A stretch of DNA of 24,000 nucleotides. Source: Candidatus Methanoperedens nitratireducens. GTDB lineage: Archaea > Halobacteriota > Methanosarcinia > Methanosarcinales > Methanoperedenaceae. A program made the position numbers and the translations under genes. A model generated the notes under the pieces. It was not told where the DNA came from and did no database searches. It was given only the letters and a program-made list of their open reading frames with translations. Position 1 is the stretch's first letter. Every line of letters starts with the position of its first letter. The stretch is from positions 34,033 to 58,032 of the forward strand of contig DYGR01000001.1 in NCBI GenBank assembly GCA_020724545.1, in the 5' to 3' direction. This document shows positions 2,416 to 22,913 of this stretch, one piece after another.

Positions 2416-3416
2416 GTCTTGATGAAATAAAAAAGAAATTATCAATAGGTCTTGTTGAAAAGCATATAAACGAACCAAGTGCACATTATGTCCACATCCT
2501 GCTTTTACGAGAATTGCAGTCAAGCGCAATTTTTACTACAAACGGTCAAGATGCAGATATCACTACTGTTGGGATAAATGCAGATGATGGTATCGTAGAA
2601 TATTCACCTGTCATGATGTTCAAAAGAAAACAGACAGGGAGTGACAGACGTAAAGGAAAAGAGCTACAAAGGAATTTTGTCGCCATCAAGGACACTATGA
2701 GCGTAAATGAAATGGCTCCTGATTCACCCGAATCGGTGCTCTATGGCAGCGCAGCCGGTGAAAATGCTATATCAGTTACATCTAGAGTTATGTATGATAC
2801 AGCCTATTCTATCAGGGATTCAAGTGTAATTGTTGAGGAGAAATTCCAGAACGCTCCAGGGGATGAATATGCAAAAGGTGCAACTACAGCCATTAGAGAA
2901 CCTGATTTCATTATGCCTAGAACTTTATTCCCCTGTGTTATAACATTAAGAGATGCCACATTCGATGAACTAATATTTGTTCTTGGAATAACAAAAATGA
3001 ATAAACGCTACGGCGCTGTCACATCCAGAATAGGGAGAATGGAAAATCACATACTGGGGATATACTCTGGTACTGAGGAAGGCACTGCAAATTTAATACT
3101 TTCTCAGGAAGTTGCGCGGCGCATAGCAAAGGAAAATGAAAAATTAACGGCTGAAAATATATCGAAGGTTCTATATAGTACTGTGCTGGATATCGAAAAA
3201 GTAAAAAAATATGTCCGGCAGGCATATGATGAGGATATTACAAAACTGAATATTAAAGCCCTTGATAATGCCGACACGAAAGAACTATTAGATCTGGTAA
3301 ACGCTGAAACAATCACACAATCATTACAGAAACTGCAAAAAGCTTCAGTAGAGTTTATAAAAGAAGTCAATCAATCGAACAAATCAAGCAAGAAAAATGA
3401 GAAAAAAGGGGATTGA
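2412..3416 (+). CDS. cas7: Cas7 backbone subunit (Csc2-like rather than DevR/Csh2-like)
   Basis: 334 aa, in the position between the small subunit and cas5, with an AAGGAGGA RBS at 2398-2405. I did not see the glycine-rich loop I associate with I-A/I-B/I-C Cas7. It has a long helical, Lys-rich C-terminal tail. The family call is by context. Confidence 0.6.
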   Translation: MSLDEIKKKLSIGLVEKHINEPSAHYVHILLLRELQSSAIFTTNGQDADITTVGINADDGIVEYSPVMMFKRKQTGSDRRKGKELQRNFVAIKDTMSVNEMAPDSPESVLYGSAAGENAISVTSRVMYDTAYSIRDSSVIVEEKFQNAPGDEYAKGATTAIREPDFIMPRTLFPCVITLRDATFDELIFVLGITKMNKRYGAVTSRIGRMENHILGIYSGTEEGTANLILSQEVARRIAKENEKLTAENISKVLYSTVLDIEKVKKYVRQAYDEDITKLNIKALDNADTKELLDLVNAETITQSLQKLQKASVEFIKEVNQSNKSSKKNEKKGD

Positions 3417-4217
3417 TTGATGAGTGATAGTTTTCCGGTAGTTAAATGCTCGATTGAAACTCTTGATCGCACGCTTTATGCCTCAAGAGAAGTCGGAGAC
3501 CTTGTAGATTCAGGTGATTATATACTTAATACCGCATTGTACTACGGCCTTGGTTTTGTTTCAGGACAGTATATCAATATTGGTAATACTCCGAACTATA
3601 TAAAAGATACTTCGGATATATTTAAAAAAATATACATAACACCTGCTTCTATGGAATCAACAGATGTTTATCTTAAAACTGTTTATGGTGAGGATAGGAA
3701 GCTATCGGAGAACTCAAAATTTTTACCAAAGCTTGGCGGTCATTCAACCAGTCAGTGGAATGCACGGCCACATCTATATGCAGTGAAAAACTGGAAAGCG
3801 ACTGATAAGGATTATCCCTATAAAGGTCTGAATTTACCTAAATTCGGCAGGGAACGAGTTATCGATCAGCAAAATCTCTTCACATCTTTCATATTTCCAT
3901 ATGAATTAGATGCTGAGCAAATAGTTTCTAAAATTCCAAGATATGTACGATTGGGCAAAAAGAAGTCTAAAGTAAGAGTTAAAACAGAGATTGTTGAGGC
4001 ATTTACAGAAGAAGGAGAGTTTATTGCCAATCATCCGTTTGGGATATACGACTATGAAGGATTACCAATTGGAGATCTCATTTCTGTTCGCATGCGTCCC
4101 ATGCCGCTGATAATACAGGGACGATACAAAGGAAAATTCATAAAGATACTGCAAGGAAAAACCAAAAAGGATGTAGTCTTACCTTATAAACTCGAACTGT
4201 TAAAGGTAAAACGATGA
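3417..4217 (+). CDS. cas5: Cas5 subunit (Csc1-like)
   Basis: 266 aa, starting right after the cas7 stop (TTG 3417, or more likely ATG 3420). The stop overlaps the cas3 start (ATGA). The N-terminus (..LYASREVGD...ILNTALYYGLGF..) resembles what I recall of Csc1-type Cas5. Confidence 0.55.
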   Translation: MMSDSFPVVKCSIETLDRTLYASREVGDLVDSGDYILNTALYYGLGFVSGQYINIGNTPNYIKDTSDIFKKIYITPASMESTDVYLKTVYGEDRKLSENSKFLPKLGGHSTSQWNARPHLYAVKNWKATDKDYPYKGLNLPKFGRERVIDQQNLFTSFIFPYELDAEQIVSKIPRYVRLGKKKSKVRVKTEIVEAFTEEGEFIANHPFGIYDYEGLPIGDLISVRMRPMPLIIQGRYKGKFIKILQGKTKKDVVLPYKLELLKVKR

Positions 4218-8271: not shown

Positions 8272-9485
8272 GTTGCAATCGATTAGAAGACCCAAAAGGG
8301 ATTGAAACAAGAGCTCGCCCATCTCTCCTTCGATGATGAGCAGGTTGCAATCGATTAGAAGACCCAAAAGGGATTGAAACAGAAATGACCTCCGCCGATA
8401 CTGAAAGATACTGGAAAAGTTGCAATCGATTAGAAGACCCAAAAGGGATTGAAACTATTCTATTCTCAAGATCTTCCTTTTTTTCTATATTCAGTTGCAA
8501 TCGATTAGAAGACCCAAAAGGGATTGAAACATACAAGTTCACGGTGTTCAGCGCCCCGTTCTCTCGTTGCAATCGATTAGAAGACCCAAAAGGGATTGAA
8601 ACCGAGCAACACCCAGAGGCGCGGCTCATACCTACACAGTTGCAATCGATTAGAAGACCCAAAAGGGATTGAAACAAGAGCTCGCCCATCTCTCCTTCGA
8701 TGATGAGCAGCGGTTGCAATCGATTAGAAGACCCAAAAGGGATTGAAACGTGCTGTGCCTGTGCTTGCAGTATCTACAGAGCATTTAGTTGCAATCGATT
8801 AGAAGACCCAAAAGGGATTGAAACTTATATGGGACGTAGCTTTAGAAGTTGCTAAACCAGTTGCAATCGATTAGAAGACCCAAAAGGGATTGAAACATTT
8901 AACTTGACTGAAGACGAAAAATGCGGTAAATGTGGTTGCAATCGATTAGAAGACCCAAAAGGGATTGAAACTAATCTTCGCATCATAAAGGAGGAAATAT
9001 GCAGCTAAGTTGCAATCGATTAGAAGACCCAAAAGGGATTGAAACGTATAAGAGTTTCTCCAGACAATGTATTCCTGGAGTGGTTGCAATCGATTAGAAG
9101 ACCCAAAAGGGATTGAAACTTGGTCTGCACTTCTGAGCCGTCCAGATACCATGTAGTTGCAATCGATTAGAAGACCCAAAAGGGATTGAAACATATCACG
9201 GTTGACGCTGTTGAAAAAGCACTGGCAAAGTTGCAATCGATTAGAAGACCCAAAAGGGATTGAAACCATGCCCATGAACGTCCACATCGTGTGCCTCCAG
9301 AACGTGTTGCAATCGATTAGAAGACCCAAAAGGGATTGAAACATAAGGATTTAACCGAACAGTGTCTTAATATAGTTGCAATCGATTAGAAGACCCAAAA
9401 GGGATTGAAACTCTTTTCTTGGTCGTCCTCTTCTTGGTTCTTTCTTCAGTTGCAATCGATTAGAAGACCCAAAAGGGATTGAAAC
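8272..9485 (+). CRISPR. CRISPR array: 17 identical 37-nt repeats (GTTGCAATCGATTAGAAGACCCAAAAGGGATTGAAAC) and 16 spacers of 32-39 nt
   Basis: Repeat starts counted by hand: 8272, 8344, 8419, 8494, 8566, 8639, 8713, 8788, 8860, 8935, 9009, 9083, 9156, 9230, 9306, 9375, 9449. The repeat contains a CCC-AAAA-GGG mini-hairpin just before the ATTGAAAC 8-nt handle, and an AATCGATT palindrome. Confidence 0.98.
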
Positions 9486-9838
9486 TCTTCGAAAGGGCGT
9501 TGCCTTGATGTCGTTAGAGATAGATATATATTAATTCCGATTGTAGCATAATGGATATGAGCATTGAATATACAGGAATTAATAAGGAGACGGTAGCAGG
9601 AGAGATTGAGAATTTTCTTGAATCCTGCCCGGAGGATACTGTATTTAAAATGGTGATTAATTCAAAGCGGGGATACCTCAGAATCAAGATAAAGAACGTC
9701 AACAAGAGCAGAATAAAGAAGTTACTGGGGAGATTGAGACGAAAACAGTCGGATATAATGTCAACTTCTCCGCCCTGAATGGCTGGAGCTTGCCGTGATG
9801 GAGGCAACTAAGAGTTGTACTAGGAGGCATTAAAAAAT
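9486..9838 (+). ncRNA. Candidate omega RNA (HEARO-like) region upstream of the IsrB-like gene; unverified
   Basis: A 353-nt gap of the size expected for an IscB/IsrB guide-plus-scaffold RNA, encoded 5' of the nuclease ORF. TATA-like ATATATATTA at ~9524-9533. Direct 10-nt repeat GAGATTGAGA at ~9601-9610 and ~9731-9740. No structure model could be run. A 75-aa ORF (9551-9778) competes for the same sequence. Confidence 0.3.
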
Positions 9839-11104
9839 ATGCAGACGCAGAAAAGCTACAAGAACGTTGGGATGCAAACCCTAGTCCCAAATAATTCGGC
9901 AGAACCATTCAATGCCACGTTCAGCGAAGCTGAGCTAAGCTTTTTTAGCAACTCCGAAGGGTGCTCAACTGAACTGGAACGGGTTGCAATCAACAGAATT
10001 CCAGTATTGAGCAAGAACGGAACACCTCTAATGCCGTGCAAACCAGCAAAAGCAAGAAAATTATTGGAATCAGGGAAAGCCATCAAAAAGTGGTCTAAAC
10101 TTGGAATATTCTATATCCAACTAACTTTTGACCCAACATCAGAACCTAACAAGAATCAGAAAGTAGTCTTAGGAATAGACCCTGGCTCAAAGTTTGACGG
10201 CTATGCCGTAACTACTGAGATAGTCAATCTTACAGGAATGTCAGAACTACCATCAGGAATCGCTGACAAGTTAGAAACCAGAAGAAGAATGCGAAGAGCA
10301 AGAAGGTACAGAAACACAAGACATAGACCCTGTAGGTTCGATAACAGGAACAGGGAAGGATTCATAGCGCCATCTCAAAGAGCGAAGGTCGAGTTCAGGT
10401 TAAAAATCGTAAAAGAACTATGCAAGCTATACCCTGCAACTGATTTTGCAGTAGAAGATGTAAGGTTTAATCATTACGAAAAGAGATGGGGCAAGCATTT
10501 CTCTACAGTAGAGATAGGGAAAACCATTCTATACACTGAACTGCAAAAGATAGGTACTCTGCACTTCTTTAATGGTTATGAAACAAAAGAAACAAGAGAA
10601 AAGCTCAGTCTAAAGAAATCGTCTAAAAAAGAATCAAGGAAACCAGAATCACATGCAACTGACGCAATAGCATTGGCATTCATGGTCAAGCCGATTAAGG
10701 TTACTTCGATATATCCATTCTATGTGTGGAAGAGATATCAGAATGCAAAAAGACAATTGCATAGACTTGAACCTGATACGGATGGCATCAGAAGAAGGTA
10801 TGGCGGCTCTAACTCGCTGAATCCGTTCAAGAAAAACGATGTAGTAAGATTCAAAGGAGAACTTGCTAGAGTTGGAGGATTTATGGATAAAAAAATATCA
10901 TTACACAACTATAATCTTAACAATAAAAGATTCACGCAAAATGCAACGTTAGATAATTGTTATCGATTATTCAACCAGAGAATAATGTTTGAAGTTGAAC
11001 ACGACAACAGGAGCGTAAATCCTGTATATATCAATGCAAGGGGTACGCTTCCTCCCGCCGCTAAAGCGGGTGGGTTTCCCCTACCCCTTGACCCCACGCT
11101 ATGA
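9839..11104 (+). CDS. isrB: IsrB-like OMEGA nuclease (PLMP domain + RRXRR bridge helix + split RuvC, no HNH)
   Basis: PLMP motif (VLSKNGTPLMPCKPAKARKLL, residues ~55-76). RuvC-I VLGIDPGSKFDGYAV (D114). Arg-rich helix ETRRRMRRARRYRNTRHRPCRFDNR. RuvC-II FAVEDVRF (E206). RuvC-III ESHATDAIALA (H272/D275). C-terminal DVVRFKGELARVGGF domain. Only ~65 residues separate RuvC-II from RuvC-III, and they contain no CxxC/H-N-H motif. AGGAGG RBS at 9822-9827. Confidence 0.75.
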   Translation: MQTQKSYKNVGMQTLVPNNSAEPFNATFSEAELSFFSNSEGCSTELERVAINRIPVLSKNGTPLMPCKPAKARKLLESGKAIKKWSKLGIFYIQLTFDPTSEPNKNQKVVLGIDPGSKFDGYAVTTEIVNLTGMSELPSGIADKLETRRRMRRARRYRNTRHRPCRFDNRNREGFIAPSQRAKVEFRLKIVKELCKLYPATDFAVEDVRFNHYEKRWGKHFSTVEIGKTILYTELQKIGTLHFFNGYETKETREKLSLKKSSKKESRKPESHATDAIALAFMVKPIKVTSIYPFYVWKRYQNAKRQLHRLEPDTDGIRRRYGGSNSLNPFKKNDVVRFKGELARVGGFMDKKISLHNYNLNNKRFTQNATLDNCYRLFNQRIMFEVEHDNRSVNPVYINARGTLPPAAKAGGFPLPLDPTL

Positions 11105-11661
11105 GCGATGAAGTTATTATAGGCATCAGTGGCGCTTCAGGGGTTCAATACGGGATACGCCTTCTTGAAACTCTAAAAAGCATGAAAGAATTTGAAACTC
11201 ATTTGATCATGTCAGAGTCGGCAAAACAACTTATCAAAATTGAAACTGATTTCTCAATACATGACATTGAGCAACTGGGTGATCATGTGTATGGCGATTA
11301 TGATTTTACAGCCCCTATAGCGAGCGGGTCTCACAGATCAAGAGGAATGATTGTTGCGCCGTGCAGTATGAAGACGCTTGCATCGATAGCTATCGGGATG
11401 TCGGATACACTGATCTCAAGGGCGGCAGATGTCTGCCTGAAGGAAAGACGCCCCCTTGTTCTGATGGTGCGTGAGACGCCTTTAAACCTGGTTCATATAG
11501 AGAACATGAGGCGGGCAGTAAGAGCAGGGGCACATATGCTTCCTGCAAGTCCGGCTTTTTATTCAAGGCCAGAATCTCTTGACGATATCATAAATTTCAT
11601 GGCAGGCCGTGCACTTGATCTCCTGGGCATTGAGCATAATCTGTACAAGCGGTGGAAGTGA
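11101..11661 (+). CDS. ubiX: UbiX-family flavin prenyltransferase (prenyl-FMN synthase)
   Basis: 186 aa. N-terminal IIGISGASGVQYGIRLLE, then MIVAPCSMKTLASIA and RPLVLMVRETPL, all typical of UbiX/Pad1. Confidence 0.9.
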   Translation: MSDEVIIGISGASGVQYGIRLLETLKSMKEFETHLIMSESAKQLIKIETDFSIHDIEQLGDHVYGDYDFTAPIASGSHRSRGMIVAPCSMKTLASIAIGMSDTLISRAADVCLKERRPLVLMVRETPLNLVHIENMRRAVRAGAHMLPASPAFYSRPESLDDIINFMAGRALDLLGIEHNLYKRWK

Positions 11662-12917
11662 TCGGATTGCGGCGATTTTTAGAACAGCTCAGATCCGAAG
11701 GAGTACTCAGGGAGATCAGAGAACCCCTCTCTCCTGTGTATGAGGTATCGGCCACAGTTGGAAAAGAACCAACACTGTTTACTGATGTCAATGGCTCAAG
11801 AGTGGTCATGAATATCCTTGGCTCAAGGGAACTGCTTGCAAAAGCCCTTGGAGTACCGCATAATAGAATAATACACCACCTGTCCTCATGCTCAACTGAG
11901 AGAAAAGTAAAGATCGTGGATGATTCGCCCGCAAAGGAAATTACTGAAAAACCTGATCTATCAAGGCTTCCTGTCCTTACACATTTTGAAGGGGACGGTG
12001 CGCCGTATATTACCTCTGGCGTCGTGGTCTCAGAGTACGACGGGGTAATGAATGCCTCGATCCACAGGCTTGGGGTAACAGGAAAGGACAGGCTTGTGGC
12101 ACGGCTTGTAGAATTCCGGCACACATATAATCTTCACAAGAAAGCCGCTGAGAATGGAGAGCCGCTGCCCATCGCAATTGTTATCGGCATCGATCCTGTG
12201 ATCCTGTTTGCAGTCTCAACGCGCGTGCCAGAAGGTCGGGAATTCAACTACGCATCAGCGCTAAGAGGCGAACCTGTTGAGTTATTTGAATGCAAAAACG
12301 GCATCAAAGTCCCGCATGCTGAGATCGTACTTGAGGGGTATATCCACCCCACAGAAGTTGCGGACGAGGGGCCATTCGTGGATATAAGCGGCACGTATGA
12401 TATAGTCAGGAAGCAGCCTGTGATCCATCTCACAAATATGATGCACAGGCGCGATCCGATTTACCATGCCCTCCTTCCTGCAGGCAGCGAGCATCACATA
12501 CTCATGGGAGTCCCTTATGAGCCCTTGATATTCAATGAAGTGAAAAAAGTGGCAGATGTAAGGAACGTAGTACTCACTTCTGGCGGATGCTGCTATTTCC
12601 ATGCTGCTGTGCAGATACATAAGAGCAATGACGATGAAGCAAGAAAAGCTATCGAGGCCACATTTGCTGCACATAAGAGCTTAAAGCATGTGATAATAGT
12701 GGATGAAGACATCAATATATTCGATCCGAACGATATCGAATTCGCAATAGCGACGAGAGTGAAGGGCGATGAGGATATTTATATTTACCCGAATGTGAGG
12801 GGAAGTACACTTGACCCGCGCTCTGAGAACGGTATAGGGACGAAGGTCGGGATTGACGCTACAATGGATCTAAGCAAGAGGTGGAAATTCCAGAGGGTGC
12901 CGAGGCCGAGGGTATGA
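11652..12917 (+). CDS. ubiD: UbiD-family decarboxylase (probable anhydromevalonate phosphate decarboxylase in this context)
   Basis: 421 aa with UbiD-like segments (..NASIHRL.., PIAIVIG.DP, EGPFVDISGTYD, the right length). GTG start overlaps the ubiX stop. The pathway role is inferred from the ubiX and aconitase-X neighbours. Confidence 0.85.
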   Translation: MEVIGLRRFLEQLRSEGVLREIREPLSPVYEVSATVGKEPTLFTDVNGSRVVMNILGSRELLAKALGVPHNRIIHHLSSCSTERKVKIVDDSPAKEITEKPDLSRLPVLTHFEGDGAPYITSGVVVSEYDGVMNASIHRLGVTGKDRLVARLVEFRHTYNLHKKAAENGEPLPIAIVIGIDPVILFAVSTRVPEGREFNYASALRGEPVELFECKNGIKVPHAEIVLEGYIHPTEVADEGPFVDISGTYDIVRKQPVIHLTNMMHRRDPIYHALLPAGSEHHILMGVPYEPLIFNEVKKVADVRNVVLTSGGCCYFHAAVQIHKSNDDEARKAIEATFAAHKSLKHVIIVDEDINIFDPNDIEFAIATRVKGDEDIYIYPNVRGSTLDPRSENGIGTKVGIDATMDLSKRWKFQRVPRPRV

Positions 12918-13019
12918 TTGAGTTTACCTGCATGAAGACTACGAAGGATGAGCGCGTTGAAGCAGCGGTTAAGATATAAAAACAATTAAAGGTATATCAG
13001 ACAATATTGCATGTAAAAG

Positions 13020-13307
13020 GTGATTCTGATGCTTATAGATTACATAAACAAAGCAATGAATAAAGCAGAATACGATAAACTGGAGGATGGTACCTTTTTT
13101 GGGAAGATTCCAGAATGTCCGGGCGTTCTTGCTTTTGGAAAAACGCTTTTTGAATGTCAGAATGAGCTAAGATCGGTACTTGAAGGCTGGATGATAGTTA
13201 AGATAAGACATGGCGATAGATTGCCTGTGATAGACGATCTCGATATTAATAAAGGAATTCCATCGGTCAATAAAAGAAATGAATTACAAAGTCAGCATTG
13301 TTATTGA
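13020..13307 (+). CDS. HicB-like (UPF0150 fold) antitoxin-family protein
   Basis: Pattern KAEYDKLEDGTFFGKIPECPGVLAFGKTLFECQNELRSVLEGWM matches the HicB/UPF0150 signature (..edG.y.g.iP.lpG..a.G.TleEa...l...le.w). The start may be ATG 13029 rather than GTG 13020. Confidence 0.6.
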   Translation: MILMLIDYINKAMNKAEYDKLEDGTFFGKIPECPGVLAFGKTLFECQNELRSVLEGWMIVKIRHGDRLPVIDDLDINKGIPSVNKRNELQSQHCY

Positions 13308-13431
13308 AAAAGATGAATATGGGTATTATGCTTATTGTCCGGAGCTTGAAGGATGTCAAACTCAGGGTGATTCTTTAGATGAAATAATGGTAAATATCAA
13401 AGAGGCTATCGAACTCTATCTGGAGACATAA
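13279..13431 (+). CDS. Second HicB-like small protein (50 aa), absent from the ORF track
   Basis: Hand translation: MNYKVSIVIEKDEYGYYAYCPELEGCQTQGDSLDEIMVNIKEAIELYLET*. This is the classic minimal HicB/UPF0150 pattern. It overlaps the upstream ORF by 29 nt. Confidence 0.6.
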   Translation: MNYKVSIVIEKDEYGYYAYCPELEGCQTQGDSLDEIMVNIKEAIELYLET

Positions 13432-13433
13432 AA

Positions 13434-13465
13434 AACCGCAGATGAACGCGGATAAACGCGGATGG
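13434..13465. repeat. Module A: three direct units CGCAGAT/CGCGGAT/CGCGGAT at 10-nt period (half module)
   Basis: Units at 13437-43, 13447-53 and 13457-63. There is no adjacent inverted arm; the inverse copies lie at 13926-13952. Confidence 0.85.
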
Positions 13466-13479
13466 CTGTTGTTCATCTT

Positions 13480-13545
13480 GACAGGATAACAGGATTAACA
13501 GGATTAAAATACAAAATATATCCTGTCAATCCTGTTAATCCTGTC
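13480..13545. repeat. Module B: 3x ACAGGAT, AT-rich loop, 3x ATCCTGT
   Basis: Forward units at 13481, 13489 and 13498; inverted units at 13520, 13529 and 13538. The outer ends GACAGGAT / ATCCTGTC are exact complements. Confidence 0.9.
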
Positions 13546-13565
13546 TGAATACGAGAAATTGACGG

Positions 13566-13847
13566 ATGGTCTCGACAGAACTCGAAGAAAATAAAGAAAA
13601 AATAAAAAATTATTGCGTAAAGAGAATTGGATTATTCGGCTCGTACATCAGAAACGAACAAAAATCTATGAGCGATATCCTTATCGAATTCGAAAAAGGT
13701 AAAGTAACATTTGACAACTACATGGATCTTAAATTCTTTCTAGAAGATCTGTTGAAATGTAAAGTTGATCTTGTAATGCATGACGCAATTAAACCTGATT
13801 TAAAACCATATGTTCTTGGGCGTGTAGAATATGCAGCGAACGAATGA
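13566..13847 (+). CDS. Minimal nucleotidyltransferase (MNT antitoxin family) with a degenerate metal-binding motif
   Basis: RIGLFGSYIRNEQKSMSDILIEFEKG matches the h-G-S-x(9-13)-D-x-D NTase pattern, except that SDILIEF replaces the usual SDIDLLVEF. The second Asp is therefore missing. Confidence 0.8.
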   Translation: MVSTELEENKEKIKNYCVKRIGLFGSYIRNEQKSMSDILIEFEKGKVTFDNYMDLKFFLEDLLKCKVDLVMHDAIKPDLKPYVLGRVEYAANE

Positions 13848-13925
13848 GGCATATCTTAACAATATTCTTGAATATAGCTATAAAATCGACAAATATAAAG
13901 AAAACATGGCTTTTGTTAATTGTGT
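13831..13925 (+). pseudogene. 5' remnant of a HEPN (DUF86) toxin gene, truncated by repeat modules
   Basis: MQRTNEAYLNNILEYSYKIDKYKENMAF resembles DUF86 N-termini (..YL.DIL.....I..Y...M.F) and overlaps the MNT stop, as in MNT-HEPN operons. From ~13926 the frame only translates tandem and inverted repeats (VSAFICVHLRLI...), and no Rx4-6H motif follows. Confidence 0.55.
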
Positions 13926-13994
13926 ATCTGCGTTCATCTGCGTTCATCTGCGGTTAATATTTTGTCCACCGCAAAGAACGCAGAGAACGCAAAG
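13926..13994. repeat. Module C: 3x ATCTGCG(TTC), loop, then CGCAAAG/CGCAGAG/CGCAAAG
   Basis: Left units at 13926, 13936 and 13946 (10-nt period); right units at 13970, 13979 and 13988 (9-nt period). The arms are imperfect complements. Confidence 0.85.
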
Positions 13995-14056
13995 CATAAC
14001 TACAATCTTTGCGAATTTTACGCCCTGGTATGAAAAAGTATTACAGCAGCGGCGTA

Positions 14057-14130
14057 GAACACGGATCAAACGGATATTCACGGGTAATTTCAATCCGTGC
14101 CAATCCGTGTCATCCGTGCAATCCGTGTTC
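14057..14130. repeat. Module D: ACGGAT, ACGGAT, ACGGGT, short loop, 4x ATCCGT(G)
   Basis: Forward units at 14061, 14070 and 14080; inverted units at 14093, 14103, 14112 and 14121. The outer 10-mers GAACACGGAT / ATCCGTGTTC are exact complements. Confidence 0.9.
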
Positions 14131-14165
14131 GATCACAATTGTTCTGTCATGAAAAAGACGATTAA

Positions 14166-14235
14166 CAACGAACTCAAAACGAACTTAAACGAACTCATAA
14201 GCCCGAGTTCGTATCGAGTTCGTACCAGTTCGTTG
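14166..14235. repeat. Module E: 3x ACGAACT, loop, 3x AGTTCGT
   Basis: Forward units at 14168, 14179 and 14189; inverted units at 14206, 14217 and 14227. The outer ends CAACGAACT / AGTTCGTTG are exact complements. Confidence 0.9.
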
Positions 14236-14298
14236 TTTATATTATCCGAACCACATCGGAATCTAAGATGCGATATAATTGAACTTTTTCATACCAGG

Positions 14299-14356
14299 AC
14301 ACAGAGAGCGCGGAGATTTTTTAAATATGTCTCTGTGTTCTCTGTGCTCTCTGTGG
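14299..14356. repeat. Module F: CACAGAGAG + degenerate unit, AT-rich loop, 3x CTCTGTG
   Basis: Inverted units at 14331, 14340 and 14349. The left arm keeps one good unit (14300-14308) and a degenerate one (CGCGGAGA). Confidence 0.8.
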
Positions 14357-14396
14357 TTTTAACTTCTCGTATAGCTTCTAAGTCACGGAGGCATGG

Positions 14397-15554
14397 ATGT
14401 ATCTAACACCTGATGAAGAAAAGCTCCTCAATGGAGAGCGCGGCCCAACATACCAGAAGGCTATCGAAATACTTGTTGCCCTCGGAGACATCTATGATGC
14501 CGACAGGCTGATTCCCATAAAAAGCGCACAGATCGCAGGTGTCTCGTACAAGACCATAGGCGATGCTGGCCTTGAGTGGATATCTGATCTAAAAGGAAAA
14601 GTGGCAGTACCCTCGATCCTGAATCCCGCTGGGATGGACAGGGAATGCTGGAGGGAGATGGGAATAGCAGGGGATTTTGCAGATAAGCAGGATAAGATCA
14701 TAAGGGCATACGAGGCGCTTGGTGTAAGAACTGAATGCACCTGTACTCCGTACAGCATCTTTGATGATCTGGCAGGATTGGGTGACCATGTGGCGTGGAG
14801 CGAATCCTCAGCCATCTCATATGCCAACTCTGTCATCGGGGCGCGAACGAACAGGGAGGGAGGACCAAGTGCACTTGCAGCGGCATTAACAGGCAAAACA
14901 CCGAATTTTGGATATCATCTGGATGAGAACAGAAGGCCCGCTATCTTAATCCAGGTAGATGCAGAGCTTCACGATTCTGATTACGGGGCTCTCGGGTATA
15001 TCGTGGGTGAGATAGCAGGAGACAGGGTTCCGTTTTTTAAACTCGAATCCACGCCATCAAAGGATGAACTTAAATCACTGGGTGCAGCGATGGCAGCGTC
15101 AGGCGCTGTGGCATTGTACCATGTCCAGGGTATCACACCTGAAGCCTGGAAATATGAACCTCCCGCTGAGAAGATCACGATAGAGGAGAGACAGATAAAA
15201 GAGGTGTATTCATCAGGTACACCTGACCTGATAGCATTCGGATGCCCTCACAGCAGCATTGATGAGCTTGAGCGGTTAGCACGACTATTAGATGGAAAAA
15301 AGGTGAAGAAGGAAGTATGGATATGCACCTCACGCGCCGTAAAGAGAGAGCATCCTCTTCTGGTAGAGCGCATAGAGAGAAGCGGTGCAAAGGTTTTCTG
15401 TGATACATGCATGGTGGTGTCCCCTGCAAGTGAGAGGTTCACCTGCATGATGGTAAATTCAGGCAAAGCGCATAAGTATGTGCCTAACCTGTGCGGCGTG
15501 AAGAGTATCCTTGCAACTACTGAGGAATGCATTGCTGCTGCACTGAGGGGTTAA
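14397..15554 (+). CDS. Aconitase X (DUF521) catalytic/large subunit; probable phosphomevalonate dehydratase large subunit
   Basis: 385 aa. MYLTPDEEKLLNGERGP...SAQIAGVSYKTIGDAGLEW...NPAGMD...C.C.PY...ESSA.SYANSV.GARTN is typical of the AcnX large subunit. GGAGG RBS at 14387-14391. The pathway role is inferred from ubiX/ubiD nearby. Confidence 0.8.
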   Translation: MYLTPDEEKLLNGERGPTYQKAIEILVALGDIYDADRLIPIKSAQIAGVSYKTIGDAGLEWISDLKGKVAVPSILNPAGMDRECWREMGIAGDFADKQDKIIRAYEALGVRTECTCTPYSIFDDLAGLGDHVAWSESSAISYANSVIGARTNREGGPSALAAALTGKTPNFGYHLDENRRPAILIQVDAELHDSDYGALGYIVGEIAGDRVPFFKLESTPSKDELKSLGAAMAASGAVALYHVQGITPEAWKYEPPAEKITIEERQIKEVYSSGTPDLIAFGCPHSSIDELERLARLLDGKKVKKEVWICTSRAVKREHPLLVERIERSGAKVFCDTCMVVSPASERFTCMMVNSGKAHKYVPNLCGVKSILATTEECIAAALRG

Positions 15555-22415: not shown

Positions 22416-22913
22416 ATGAACAATAAAAAAATCGATAGAATATCAGGAAGGGTATGGAAATTCGGCGACAATATCGATACCGATGTTATTATTCCGGGTA
22501 AATACCTGCGCACCACTGATATGAGTGTGTTCGCATCGCATGTCATGGAGGGGATTGAGCCGCAGTTCTCACAGAAAGTGACAAGCGGCGATATAATCGC
22601 TGCAGGCAAGAACTTCGGGTGCGGCTCATCAAGGGAACAGGCACCCCTTGCTTTAAAACATGCAGGCATAGCATGTATAGTGGCAGAGTCATTCGCCAGG
22701 ATATTTTTCAGGAATGCCATCAATATCGGCCTGCCTATTATAGAAGCAAGAATAGACTGTGAAGAGGGCGATATTATTGAGATCGACCTTGAAAATGGAT
22801 TTGTAAGAAATAAAGATAAAAGCTTTAAGGGTACAGAACTTCCTGATTTTCTGCGTGATATCCTGGCATACGGAGGGCTTGTTGAGTACAGAAAAAGGAA
22901 GGTGCAGCAGTGA
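22416..22913 (+). CDS. leuD: Aconitase-family dehydratase small subunit (LeuD / HacB type)
   Basis: [19 protein letters not shown] and [19 protein letters not shown]....[18 protein letters not shown] are canonical for the isopropylmalate isomerase / homoaconitase small subunit. Confidence 0.9.

Follow-up and report, generated by a model that had tools for sequence, protein, structure and literature searches.

ISC transposons were described in 2016 by Kapitonov, Makarova and Koonin, with archaeal hosts included, and those of the ISC1 type encode an HNH-less protein that was later renamed IsrB (PMC4810608). ISC elements are non-autonomous, range from 1,341 to 1,707 bp, carry subterminal hairpins and insert at N|ATGA or GT|GA without duplication of the target; their termini are common to TnpB-only IS605B elements, in the opposite orientation (PMC4810608). 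Archaeal examples include the HNH-containing ISC2 of Methanosarcina lacustris, which has a GT|GA target (PMC4810608). Nicking by IsrB and its target-adjacent motif (TAM) were shown for DtIsrB from Desulfovirgula thermocuniculi, in which residues R323 and Q326 recognise G and A within the TTGA/NTGA TAM (PMC9581776). In Methanoperedens Borgs, IsrB has been noted as one of the multicopy genes with the highest prevalence (PMC12660748). Here, we analysed a 24,000-nt stretch of Candidatus Methanoperedens nitratireducens DNA (contig DYGR01000001.1, positions 34,033 to 58,032; hereafter the window), in which a 421-aa open reading frame (ORF) located at 9839-11104 on the plus strand had been singled out as an IsrB candidate by a sequence-only reading. 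Candidatus Methanoperedens is a methane-oxidising ANME-2d archaeon of the Methanosarcinales. We consider it likely that region 9760-11100 of the window is a non-autonomous ISC1 transposon, which encodes an IsrB nickase and an overlapping omegaRNA, homes at an ATGA junction and has had its start codon moved into the omegaRNA.

The limits of the element were obtained by comparing filled and empty sites. The CRISPR (clustered regularly interspaced short palindromic repeats) array found upstream is separated from IsrB by a small host gene (9551-9778, plus strand), a 75-aa ORF homologous to ANME2D_01385. This gene has 190 homologues, the named ones of which are nearly all from Candidatus Methanoperedens; its best match is the 68-aa ANME2D_01385 protein of Candidatus M. 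nitroreducens, which is 100% identical over the shared length. The reference protein (P0122) terminates in ...QSDII, whereas the version in the window terminates in ...QSDIMSTSPP, because the element is inserted at the stop codon of the gene. In eight related Methanoperedens contigs (loci L048-L055), among which are three NCBI assemblies (a 3.3-Mb contig in one of them), the small gene lies directly before ubiX, and the stop and start codons of the two genes overlap in ATGA. The empty site in these reference contigs reads ...CGAAAACAGTCGGATATAAT|ATGAGCGATGAG..., and the exact 24-nt joint, CGAAAACAGTCGGATATAAT|ATGA (...ATATAAT|ATGAGCG), is found in all eight. The window matches the empty site leftward up to 9759 and rightward from 11101. 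Therefore, the insert corresponds to 9760-11100 on the plus strand (1341 bp, termini 5'-GTCAAC...CACGCT-3'), is located directly before ATGA, in an N|ATGA target, and is not flanked by a target-site duplication. The nucleotide similarity to relatives likewise sets in precisely at 9760; in no locus are the upstream flanks related. Flank identity to L048 is 99% on the left and 94-96% on the right; thus, the window stems from a strain or species that is related, and the IsrB site is polymorphic. A right boundary first placed before an internal TTGA (11088-11091), on the basis of distant loci, was ruled out by the empty site, which sets it at 11100|ATGA. The flanking ATGA (11101-11104, plus strand) is at once insertion target, predicted TAM (NTGA), start codon of ubiX and, as TGA, stop codon of IsrB.

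The element is an IsrB-only, ISC1-type member of the IS200/IS605 superfamily. Like ISC1 elements, for instance ISC1-1_MA of Microcystis, it is approximately 1.3 kb long and non-autonomous, features subterminal hairpins at both ends and is inserted at N|ATGA without duplication. The ISC1-1_MA consensus starts with 5'-GTCA (PMC4810608), and the element described here with 5'-GTCAAC. The 3' termini differ (...GCT here, ...CG in ISC1), as do the hosts, which is Methanoperedens in the present case.

Both sequence searches and a structural model identify the 421-aa protein as IsrB, an HNH-less relative of IscB with intact catalytic residues. All of the motifs that had been read from the translation by eye are present. 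The PLMP domain spans aa ~53-108 (PLMP motif at aa 63-66, aligned to P17-P20 of DtIsrB) and is followed by RuvC-I (GIDPGS, aa 112-117; catalytic D114, 10178-10180) and by an arginine-rich bridge helix with the RRXRR signature (aa 148-170; RRRMRRARRYRNTRHR, aa 148-163, and RFDNR, aa 166-170). RuvC-II (AVED, aa 204-207) contributes the catalytic E206 (10454-10456), and RuvC-III (HATDA, aa 272-276) contributes H272 and D275 (10652-10663). D114, E206, H272 and D275 are invariant in an alignment of 21 homologous sequences, in line with the catalytic set having been called complete, and the bridge-helix arginines R148-R170 are invariant or nearly so. Profile searches place the protein with IsrB: Pfam RRXRR (PF14239) matches aa 54-211 over model positions 1-157 (E 5.9e-44), while the NCBIfam IscB equivalog model scores 147 bits against a cutoff of 175, mainly over aa 56-211. 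The protein had been described as HNH-less, and no HNH family was detected in a Pfam search at E<=1; AVED and HATDA are spaced by 64 residues, and the alignment with DtIsrB shows no insertion between RuvC-II and RuvC-III. Because the HNH domain is absent and the IscB model score falls below its cutoff, the protein is expected to nick DNA rather than cut both strands. The ORF is uninterrupted, and its core codons (PLMP, RuvC and TAM-interacting, or TI, domains) show a third-position identity of 0.50-0.57 versus 0.79-0.88 at positions 1 and 2, a pattern of purifying selection.

Among solved structures searched by sequence, DtIsrB (8DMB) is the best match by far (E 7e-77), followed by IscB proteins (1e-13 and weaker). 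In BLASTP comparisons, the protein is 47% identical over 290 aa to the DtIsrB gene product encoded in the D. thermocuniculi genome (L024). The AlphaFold model, for which the alignment served as input, is confident over aa 51-377, with block values of the confidence score pLDDT mostly at 73-93 (84-93 in PLMP), while aa 1-50 and 378-421 are unstructured (pLDDT <30). The top Foldseek match of the model is 8DMB (E 4.2e-29, 41% identity, 334 columns); IscB structures come next, and RuvC resolvases follow. Profile and structure searches had been named as tests that could refute the identification, and their outcome favours it. The TI domain is located at aa ~326-384. In a 30-sequence alignment, its KRFTQ motif, in which R364 and Q367 (10928-10939) are both invariant, aligns with KRIGQ of DtIsrB, which contains R323 and Q326.

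The protein thus resembles DtIsrB in the order of its PLMP, split RuvC, bridge helix, short HNH-replacing linker and TI segments, in the KRxxQ motif, in having an upstream omegaRNA with the guide at its 5' end, and in a flanking ATGA that fits the NTGA TAM (PMC9581776). It differs in its archaeal host, in an ORF start that lies ~131 nt inside the scaffold rather than just after a terminal Shine-Dalgarno (SD) hairpin, in ~48 extra N-terminal residues, in ~35 extra C-terminal residues that result from read-through into the transposon end, and in a TI domain too divergent for pairwise BLAST. With IscB (for example OgeuIscB, 7XHT/7UTN), it has in common PLMP, RuvC, the bridge helix and an omegaRNA of the HEARO type; the corresponding fold matches have E values of 1e-17 and weaker. 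Unlike IscB, the protein has no HNH domain and scores below the cutoff of the NCBIfam IscB model.

As judged from comparative alignments, the element carries its own intact, covariation-supported omegaRNA fold. The predicted scaffold (9760-9990, plus strand) is composed of a match to the Rfam HEARO family (RF02033), to which IscB and IsrB omegaRNAs belong, at 9760-9969 and a terminal hairpin at 9969-9982. The match (49.2 bits, E 2.8e-8) covers the full model (positions 1-211) on the plus strand and is found in the expected place. The RNA departs from HEARO in that the 3' terminal SD hairpin is replaced and in that it is also protein-coding. The consensus fold derived from an 18-sequence alignment comprises 38 pairs, of which 26 feature compensatory changes, and both the pseudoknot and the stems are supported. 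Cells of the alignment are paired in 92.3% of cases, compared with 36-51% in controls with partners displaced by 1-3 columns; the alignment has a covariation score of 0.54, against 0.09-0.15 in these slid controls, and none of 500 shuffles was as good as the observed alignment. The window sequence retains 36 of the 38 consensus pairs. The first stem-loop (helix 1; 9768-9788, plus strand), in which six of seven pairs show compensatory changes, is at the same time the subterminal hairpin of the transposon end. A lack of conserved upstream RNA among homologues had been named as a result that would weaken the identification of IsrB; HEARO RNA is found upstream of IsrB at 13 of 14 relatives' loci and is supported by covariation.

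The predicted guide-encoding flank, CGAAAACAGTCGGATATAAT (9740-9759, plus strand), occurs once in the window and consists of the 20 nt located directly 5' of the scaffold, outside the element; its length was taken from DtIsrB (PMC9581776). The guide would be taken from the final 20 nt of the small host gene, so that the precursor transcript would have to start in host DNA. The promoter of the small gene would be the obvious candidate; read-through out of the CRISPR array, which is on the same strand, is possible.

The distal transposon end (11040-11100, plus strand) comprises GGGGTACGCTTCC as a block, followed by an imperfect hairpin (~11054-11074) and then by GTTTCCCCTACCCC...CACGCT. The last conserved segment of the protein, ...RLFNQRIMFE, occupies aa 376-385, and the ORF runs ~35 codons further. 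The tail (aa 385-421) shows neither a codon-position pattern nor predicted structure, and the distal block is conserved as DNA even where the proteins are only ~50% identical. Comparison of these sequences indicates that the tail is the translated distal end of the transposon. Hence the C-terminal beta-rich domain described in the sequence-only reading is present as the TI region, beta-rich in the AlphaFold model over aa 335-393, and does not include the last ~35 residues. The IsrB ORF has no stop inside the element and ends at the TGA of the flanking ATGA. A stop at the target TGA is also found in L001, L058 and L062, and not in L056, L060, L061 and L063. That the stop always coincides with the target TGA was considered and rejected, as this holds for about half of eight close relatives, and the others stop at an internal TTGA or at TAA. 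At three independent loci (L058 4239-4242, L062 3248-3251 and window 11101-11104), the IsrB stop overlaps the ATG of the next host gene in ATGA. The N|ATGA target seems to steer IsrB elements into overlapping stop/start junctions of operons.

A second element with the same ends was identified in reference strains of Candidatus M. nitroreducens. This TnpB-only IS605-type (IS605B) element (L048 ~2698-4000, minus strand) is inserted at the start-codon ATGA of the small gene (GGAT|ATGAGC); its site lies ~200 bp upstream of that of IsrB, and the window is empty at the corresponding position (9556|9557). Homology was found between the distal IsrB end and that end of the TnpB element which adjoins the tnpB start (alignment to L048 3880-4010); the arms of the distal hairpin have different letters in the TnpB element, with complementarity kept. 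At its other end, the TnpB element has the plus-strand sequence GTCAACTACTCAGCCCTAAAGGGCAGGAGCTTG, which is very similar to the initial 33 nt of the IsrB omegaRNA. Since both ends are alike, the IsrB and TnpB elements share ends and target, in opposite gene orientation, as ISC1 and TnpB-only IS605B elements do. Each of the two is carried by one set of strains and missing from the other set. Unlike the IsrB element, the second element carries TnpB, a Cas12 relative, on the opposite strand; its ATGA target reads TCAT on its own strand, and, judging by other TnpB elements, its guide would be located at the 3' end of the RNA. In L048, tnpB is called as two pieces of 272 and 114 aa, and a 422-aa antisense ORF, which is probably spurious, is also called over the element.

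The CRISPR array (8272-9485, plus strand) consists of 17 identical 37-nt repeats (GTTGCAATCGATTAGAAGACCCAAAAGGGATTGAAAC) and represents the context of the element, not a part of it. It ends 354 nt before the IsrB ATG, in agreement with the type I array noticed ~350 nt upstream, and 274 nt before the element. The cas genes found upstream of the array on the same strand (Csc2, Cas3 helicase, Cas4, Cas1 and Cas2) indicate type I-D. The direction of array transcription was inferred from the 3' end of the repeat, ATTGAAAC, and from the position of the cas genes. Spacers 1 and 6 (8309-8343 and 8676-8712) have the same sequence, AAGAGCTCGCCCATCTCTCCTTCGATGATGAGCAG, with two extra nt in spacer 6, which suggests either internal duplication or repeated acquisition. 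Empty-site strains keep the same trailer and a single degenerate repeat that is 94% identical (L048 2603-2638, also L049-L055), and L048, whose upstream flank was read, features a DDE transposase gene where the window has cas genes. Therefore, the CRISPR-Cas locus is present in some strains and collapsed in others.

The features described above are compatible with a homing cycle of the following kind. A transcript originating in the upstream host gene, or by read-through from the array, would be trimmed to a ~20-nt guide (9740-9759) plus scaffold; the mRNA of the small gene would run straight into both. The target of the IsrB-omegaRNA complex would be the element-free allele, in which CGAAAACAGTCGGATATAAT precedes the TAM ATGA; its non-target strand would be nicked, and repair from a filled copy would restore or spread the element. 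The filled site would not be targeted, because GTCA, not NTGA, follows the guide match. Movement of the element would depend on a Y1 transposase, TnpA, supplied in trans. Donor-joint targeting, by which the element is retained or re-copied, has been demonstrated for TnpB and IscB (bioRxiv 10.1101/2023.03.14.532601).

Several observations weigh against this interpretation. Restorative homing was shown for the double-strand cutters TnpB and IscB, and its application to the IsrB nickase is an extrapolation. The HEARO score of 49.2 bits is lower than the gathering cutoff of 83. Only one of the 13 HEARO RNAs at relatives' loci, which score 37-84 bits, passes this cutoff, and the HEARO copy in the D. 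thermocuniculi genome scores 37 bits only; as this genome is the source of the validated DtIsrB, sub-threshold scores are normal for IsrB and the cutoff is too strict. The correspondence of the TI domains depends on the multiple alignment, pairwise BLASTP with DtIsrB not aligning that region. The filled/empty polymorphism could reflect either insertion in the window lineage or precise excision in the others. As had been noticed at first sight, no TnpA was detected among the scanned ORFs of the window, the rest of the genome not having been searched. No near-identical second copy was found, the closest element sharing 77% DNA identity; two scans of metagenome DNA aimed at sister copies returned zero matches and two distant matches, and the window IsrB forms a singleton protein cluster confined to one contig. 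Given the lack of a near-identical copy and the singleton cluster, current mobility is unproven. The missing TnpA, the singleton cluster and the lack of a close sister copy would all suit a stranded relic, in which IsrB and omegaRNA look intact but are immobile or inactive in the absence of a cognate TnpA and are kept as a neutral insertion. We regard such a relic as improbable, as all catalytic and TAM-reading residues are invariant, 36 of the 38 omegaRNA pairs are retained, core codons are under purifying selection in an uninterrupted ORF, and both the IsrB and the end-sharing TnpB elements are polymorphic between strains that are 94-99% identical. Moreover, most IscB/IsrB loci have no TnpA nearby anyway (bioRxiv 10.1101/2023.03.14.532601). 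The proximity of the array, on the same strand and at a distance from which read-through could reach the omegaRNA, had raised the question of an interplay, and CRISPR-associated IscB systems exist (PMC12660989). That IsrB works with the adjacent type I-D array, by using CRISPR RNAs or depending on array transcripts, as an OMEGA-CRISPR intermediate, is nevertheless extremely improbable. A conserved host gene separates array and element, and the insertion point is explained by the ATGA target, which has no insert in strains retaining the repeat, trailer and small gene. No repeat-like or repeat-complementary sequence (anti-repeat) occurs in the window outside the array, none of the spacers has a match in the element, the window or the fetched loci, and the element has a complete omegaRNA of its own. 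A CRISPR array is found within the flanks of only one of 55 other IsrB loci, that of Moorella naiadis (L019), where a 13-repeat array (469-1304) lies ~3.7 kb upstream of IsrB. On these sequence comparisons, the closeness of the ISC1 element to the array looks coincidental.

A further point to be weighed concerns the start of the ORF. Approximately 50 residues preceding the PLMP domain had been flagged as atypical; these residues are indeed present (aa 1-48), yet they are not a new domain and result from the overlap of the ORF with the omegaRNA (HEARO match 9760-9969). The scaffold overlaps codons 1-44, the ATG being located ~131 nt into it, and 1262 of the 1341 bp of the element fall within the IsrB ORF. 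Among eight close relatives, third-codon-position identity is 0.88 in codons 1-26 and 0.85 in codons 27-48, compared with 0.50-0.57 in the core; therefore, the N-terminal extension is constrained as RNA, not as protein. These 48 codons might then be untranslated, the long ORF being a by-product of the omegaRNA and the real start lying next to PLMP (CTG 9974, ATC 9989, ATT 9998 or TTG 10007). Such a start would agree with the lack of predicted structure in the extension and its conservation at the RNA rather than the protein level, with DtIsrB and most relatives, which begin 1-15 codons before the PLMP strand, and with a protein of the same clade (P0029), which begins with M at position -7. In most other lineages, the omegaRNA region contains a stop codon, and a terminal GGAGG hairpin is followed by ATG or GTG 1-15 codons before the PLMP strand; DtIsrB is organised likewise, with a terminal SD hairpin and then a start near PLMP (PMC9581776). 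The canonical terminal SD hairpin and ATG of these distant relatives are, however, absent from the window clade, no ATG or GTG occurs between 9872 and the PLMP domain, and initiation at TTG 10007 would delete the first PLMP strand. In contrast, ATG 9839 is conserved in eight of eight close relatives, and the indels that follow it are all multiples of three (0/3/12/15 and 0/3/6 nt), whereas those just upstream measure 1, 3 or 4 nt. An SD-like AGGAGG (9822-9827, plus strand) ends 11 nt before this ATG, and most close homologues are called with the extension, the peptide of which is MQTQKSYKNVGMQTLVPNNSAEPFNATFSEAELSFFSNSEGCSTELER. We therefore view a downstream start as rather unlikely and propose, with moderate confidence, that translation in the window clade starts at 9839, inside the omegaRNA, and yields a disordered ~48-aa extension dictated by the RNA. 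It counts against this proposal, and against the ISC1 interpretation of which it is part, that the start at ATG 9839 was inferred only from frame conservation. In the consensus fold, GGAG 9823-9826 pairs with CUCC 9952-9955 (helix 2), and omegaRNA folding may compete with translation at AGGAGG.

The distribution of IsrB was analysed in species-representative genomes, without the window's own. A single-protein query found no relative, and an alignment query recovered 47 IsrB-family loci, of which 18 are archaeal (Sifarchaeum, Borrarchaeota, Bathyarchaeota, Alkanophaga and Thermoplasmata). The view that an archaeal copy is unusual does not agree with this count, with the known archaeal ISC elements (PMC4810608) or with the IsrB genes of Borgs (PMC12660748). 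The element shows every testable defining feature of IsrB and ISC1 and lacks the HNH domain that defines IscB; neither an anti-repeat nor a conserved association with arrays, as expected of CRISPR-associated effectors, was found. It is an ordinary, intact-looking representative of known ISC1/IsrB transposons. The closest IsrB relatives (62-77% protein identity; L056, L058, L060 and L063) are found in runs of short hypothetical genes on the same strand and have Ku, ligase, Dam or MoxR-like genes as neighbours; such contexts resemble extrachromosomal, Borg-like or viral DNA more than core chromosome. In some other loci (Bathyarchaeota L004, L005 and L030; Bipolaricaulia L016 and L023; a deltaproteobacterial metagenome-assembled genome, L006), the ORF starts further 5' in the omegaRNA, deeper in the scaffold, as in L030 (ATGCAAACCTTGACTAGA). 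These six loci have no canonical start near PLMP and keep the SD-like hairpin.

Directly downstream of the element, ubiX (11101-11661) and a ubiD-family gene (11652-12917) are encoded on the plus strand, in the same order as in L048-L055. Together with the genes for aconitase X and an aconitase-C-like small subunit (window 11101-15554 and 22416-22913), they presumably fit the archaeal modified mevalonate pathway, at the steps of phosphomevalonate dehydratase and anhydromevalonate-phosphate decarboxylase. The element heads this probably essential lipid-precursor cluster, and none of those genes is broken. The segment between ubiD and aconitase X (12910-13940) differs from that of the reference strains and contains small toxin-antitoxin-like genes, encoding a UPF0150/HicB-like protein (13020-13307) and a nucleotidyltransferase (13566-13847). 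The ORF at 13831-14406 encodes an odd repetitive peptide (RTQRTQ...).

The element reveals neither a new kind of system nor a link between CRISPR and OMEGA systems (obligate mobile element-guided activity). It is a cleanly resolved natural IsrB element in an uncultivated methane-oxidising archaeon, and its exact ends, predicted guide, TAM and matching empty allele are defined, which provides a ready substrate design for the testing of an archaeal IsrB. Two annotation traps are corrected: the N-terminal 'extension' comes from the omegaRNA sequence, and the C-terminal tail represents a transposon end. In Methanoperedens, IsrB and TnpB elements have common ends and a common ATGA target, and both are polymorphic within ~200 bp. 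An ORF running through both the omegaRNA and the distal end is mildly unusual. As a tentative generalisation, which we put forward as a possibility short of probable, the IsrB ORF may fill nearly the whole transposon in the Methanoperedens-associated clade, and an independent expansion of this kind may have occurred in Bathyarchaeota, Bipolaricaulia and a deltaproteobacterial lineage. No fewer than 131 nt would then serve as both RNA and coding sequence, GGAG would be locked in the pseudoknot, the stop would be provided by the target TGA, and the omegaRNA and mRNA fates would be mutually exclusive. If this is true, a single transcript would possess a built-in switch between its omegaRNA and mRNA fates, and through insertion at ATGA junctions the translation of the host gene downstream (ubiX in the present case) would become coupled to that of IsrB.

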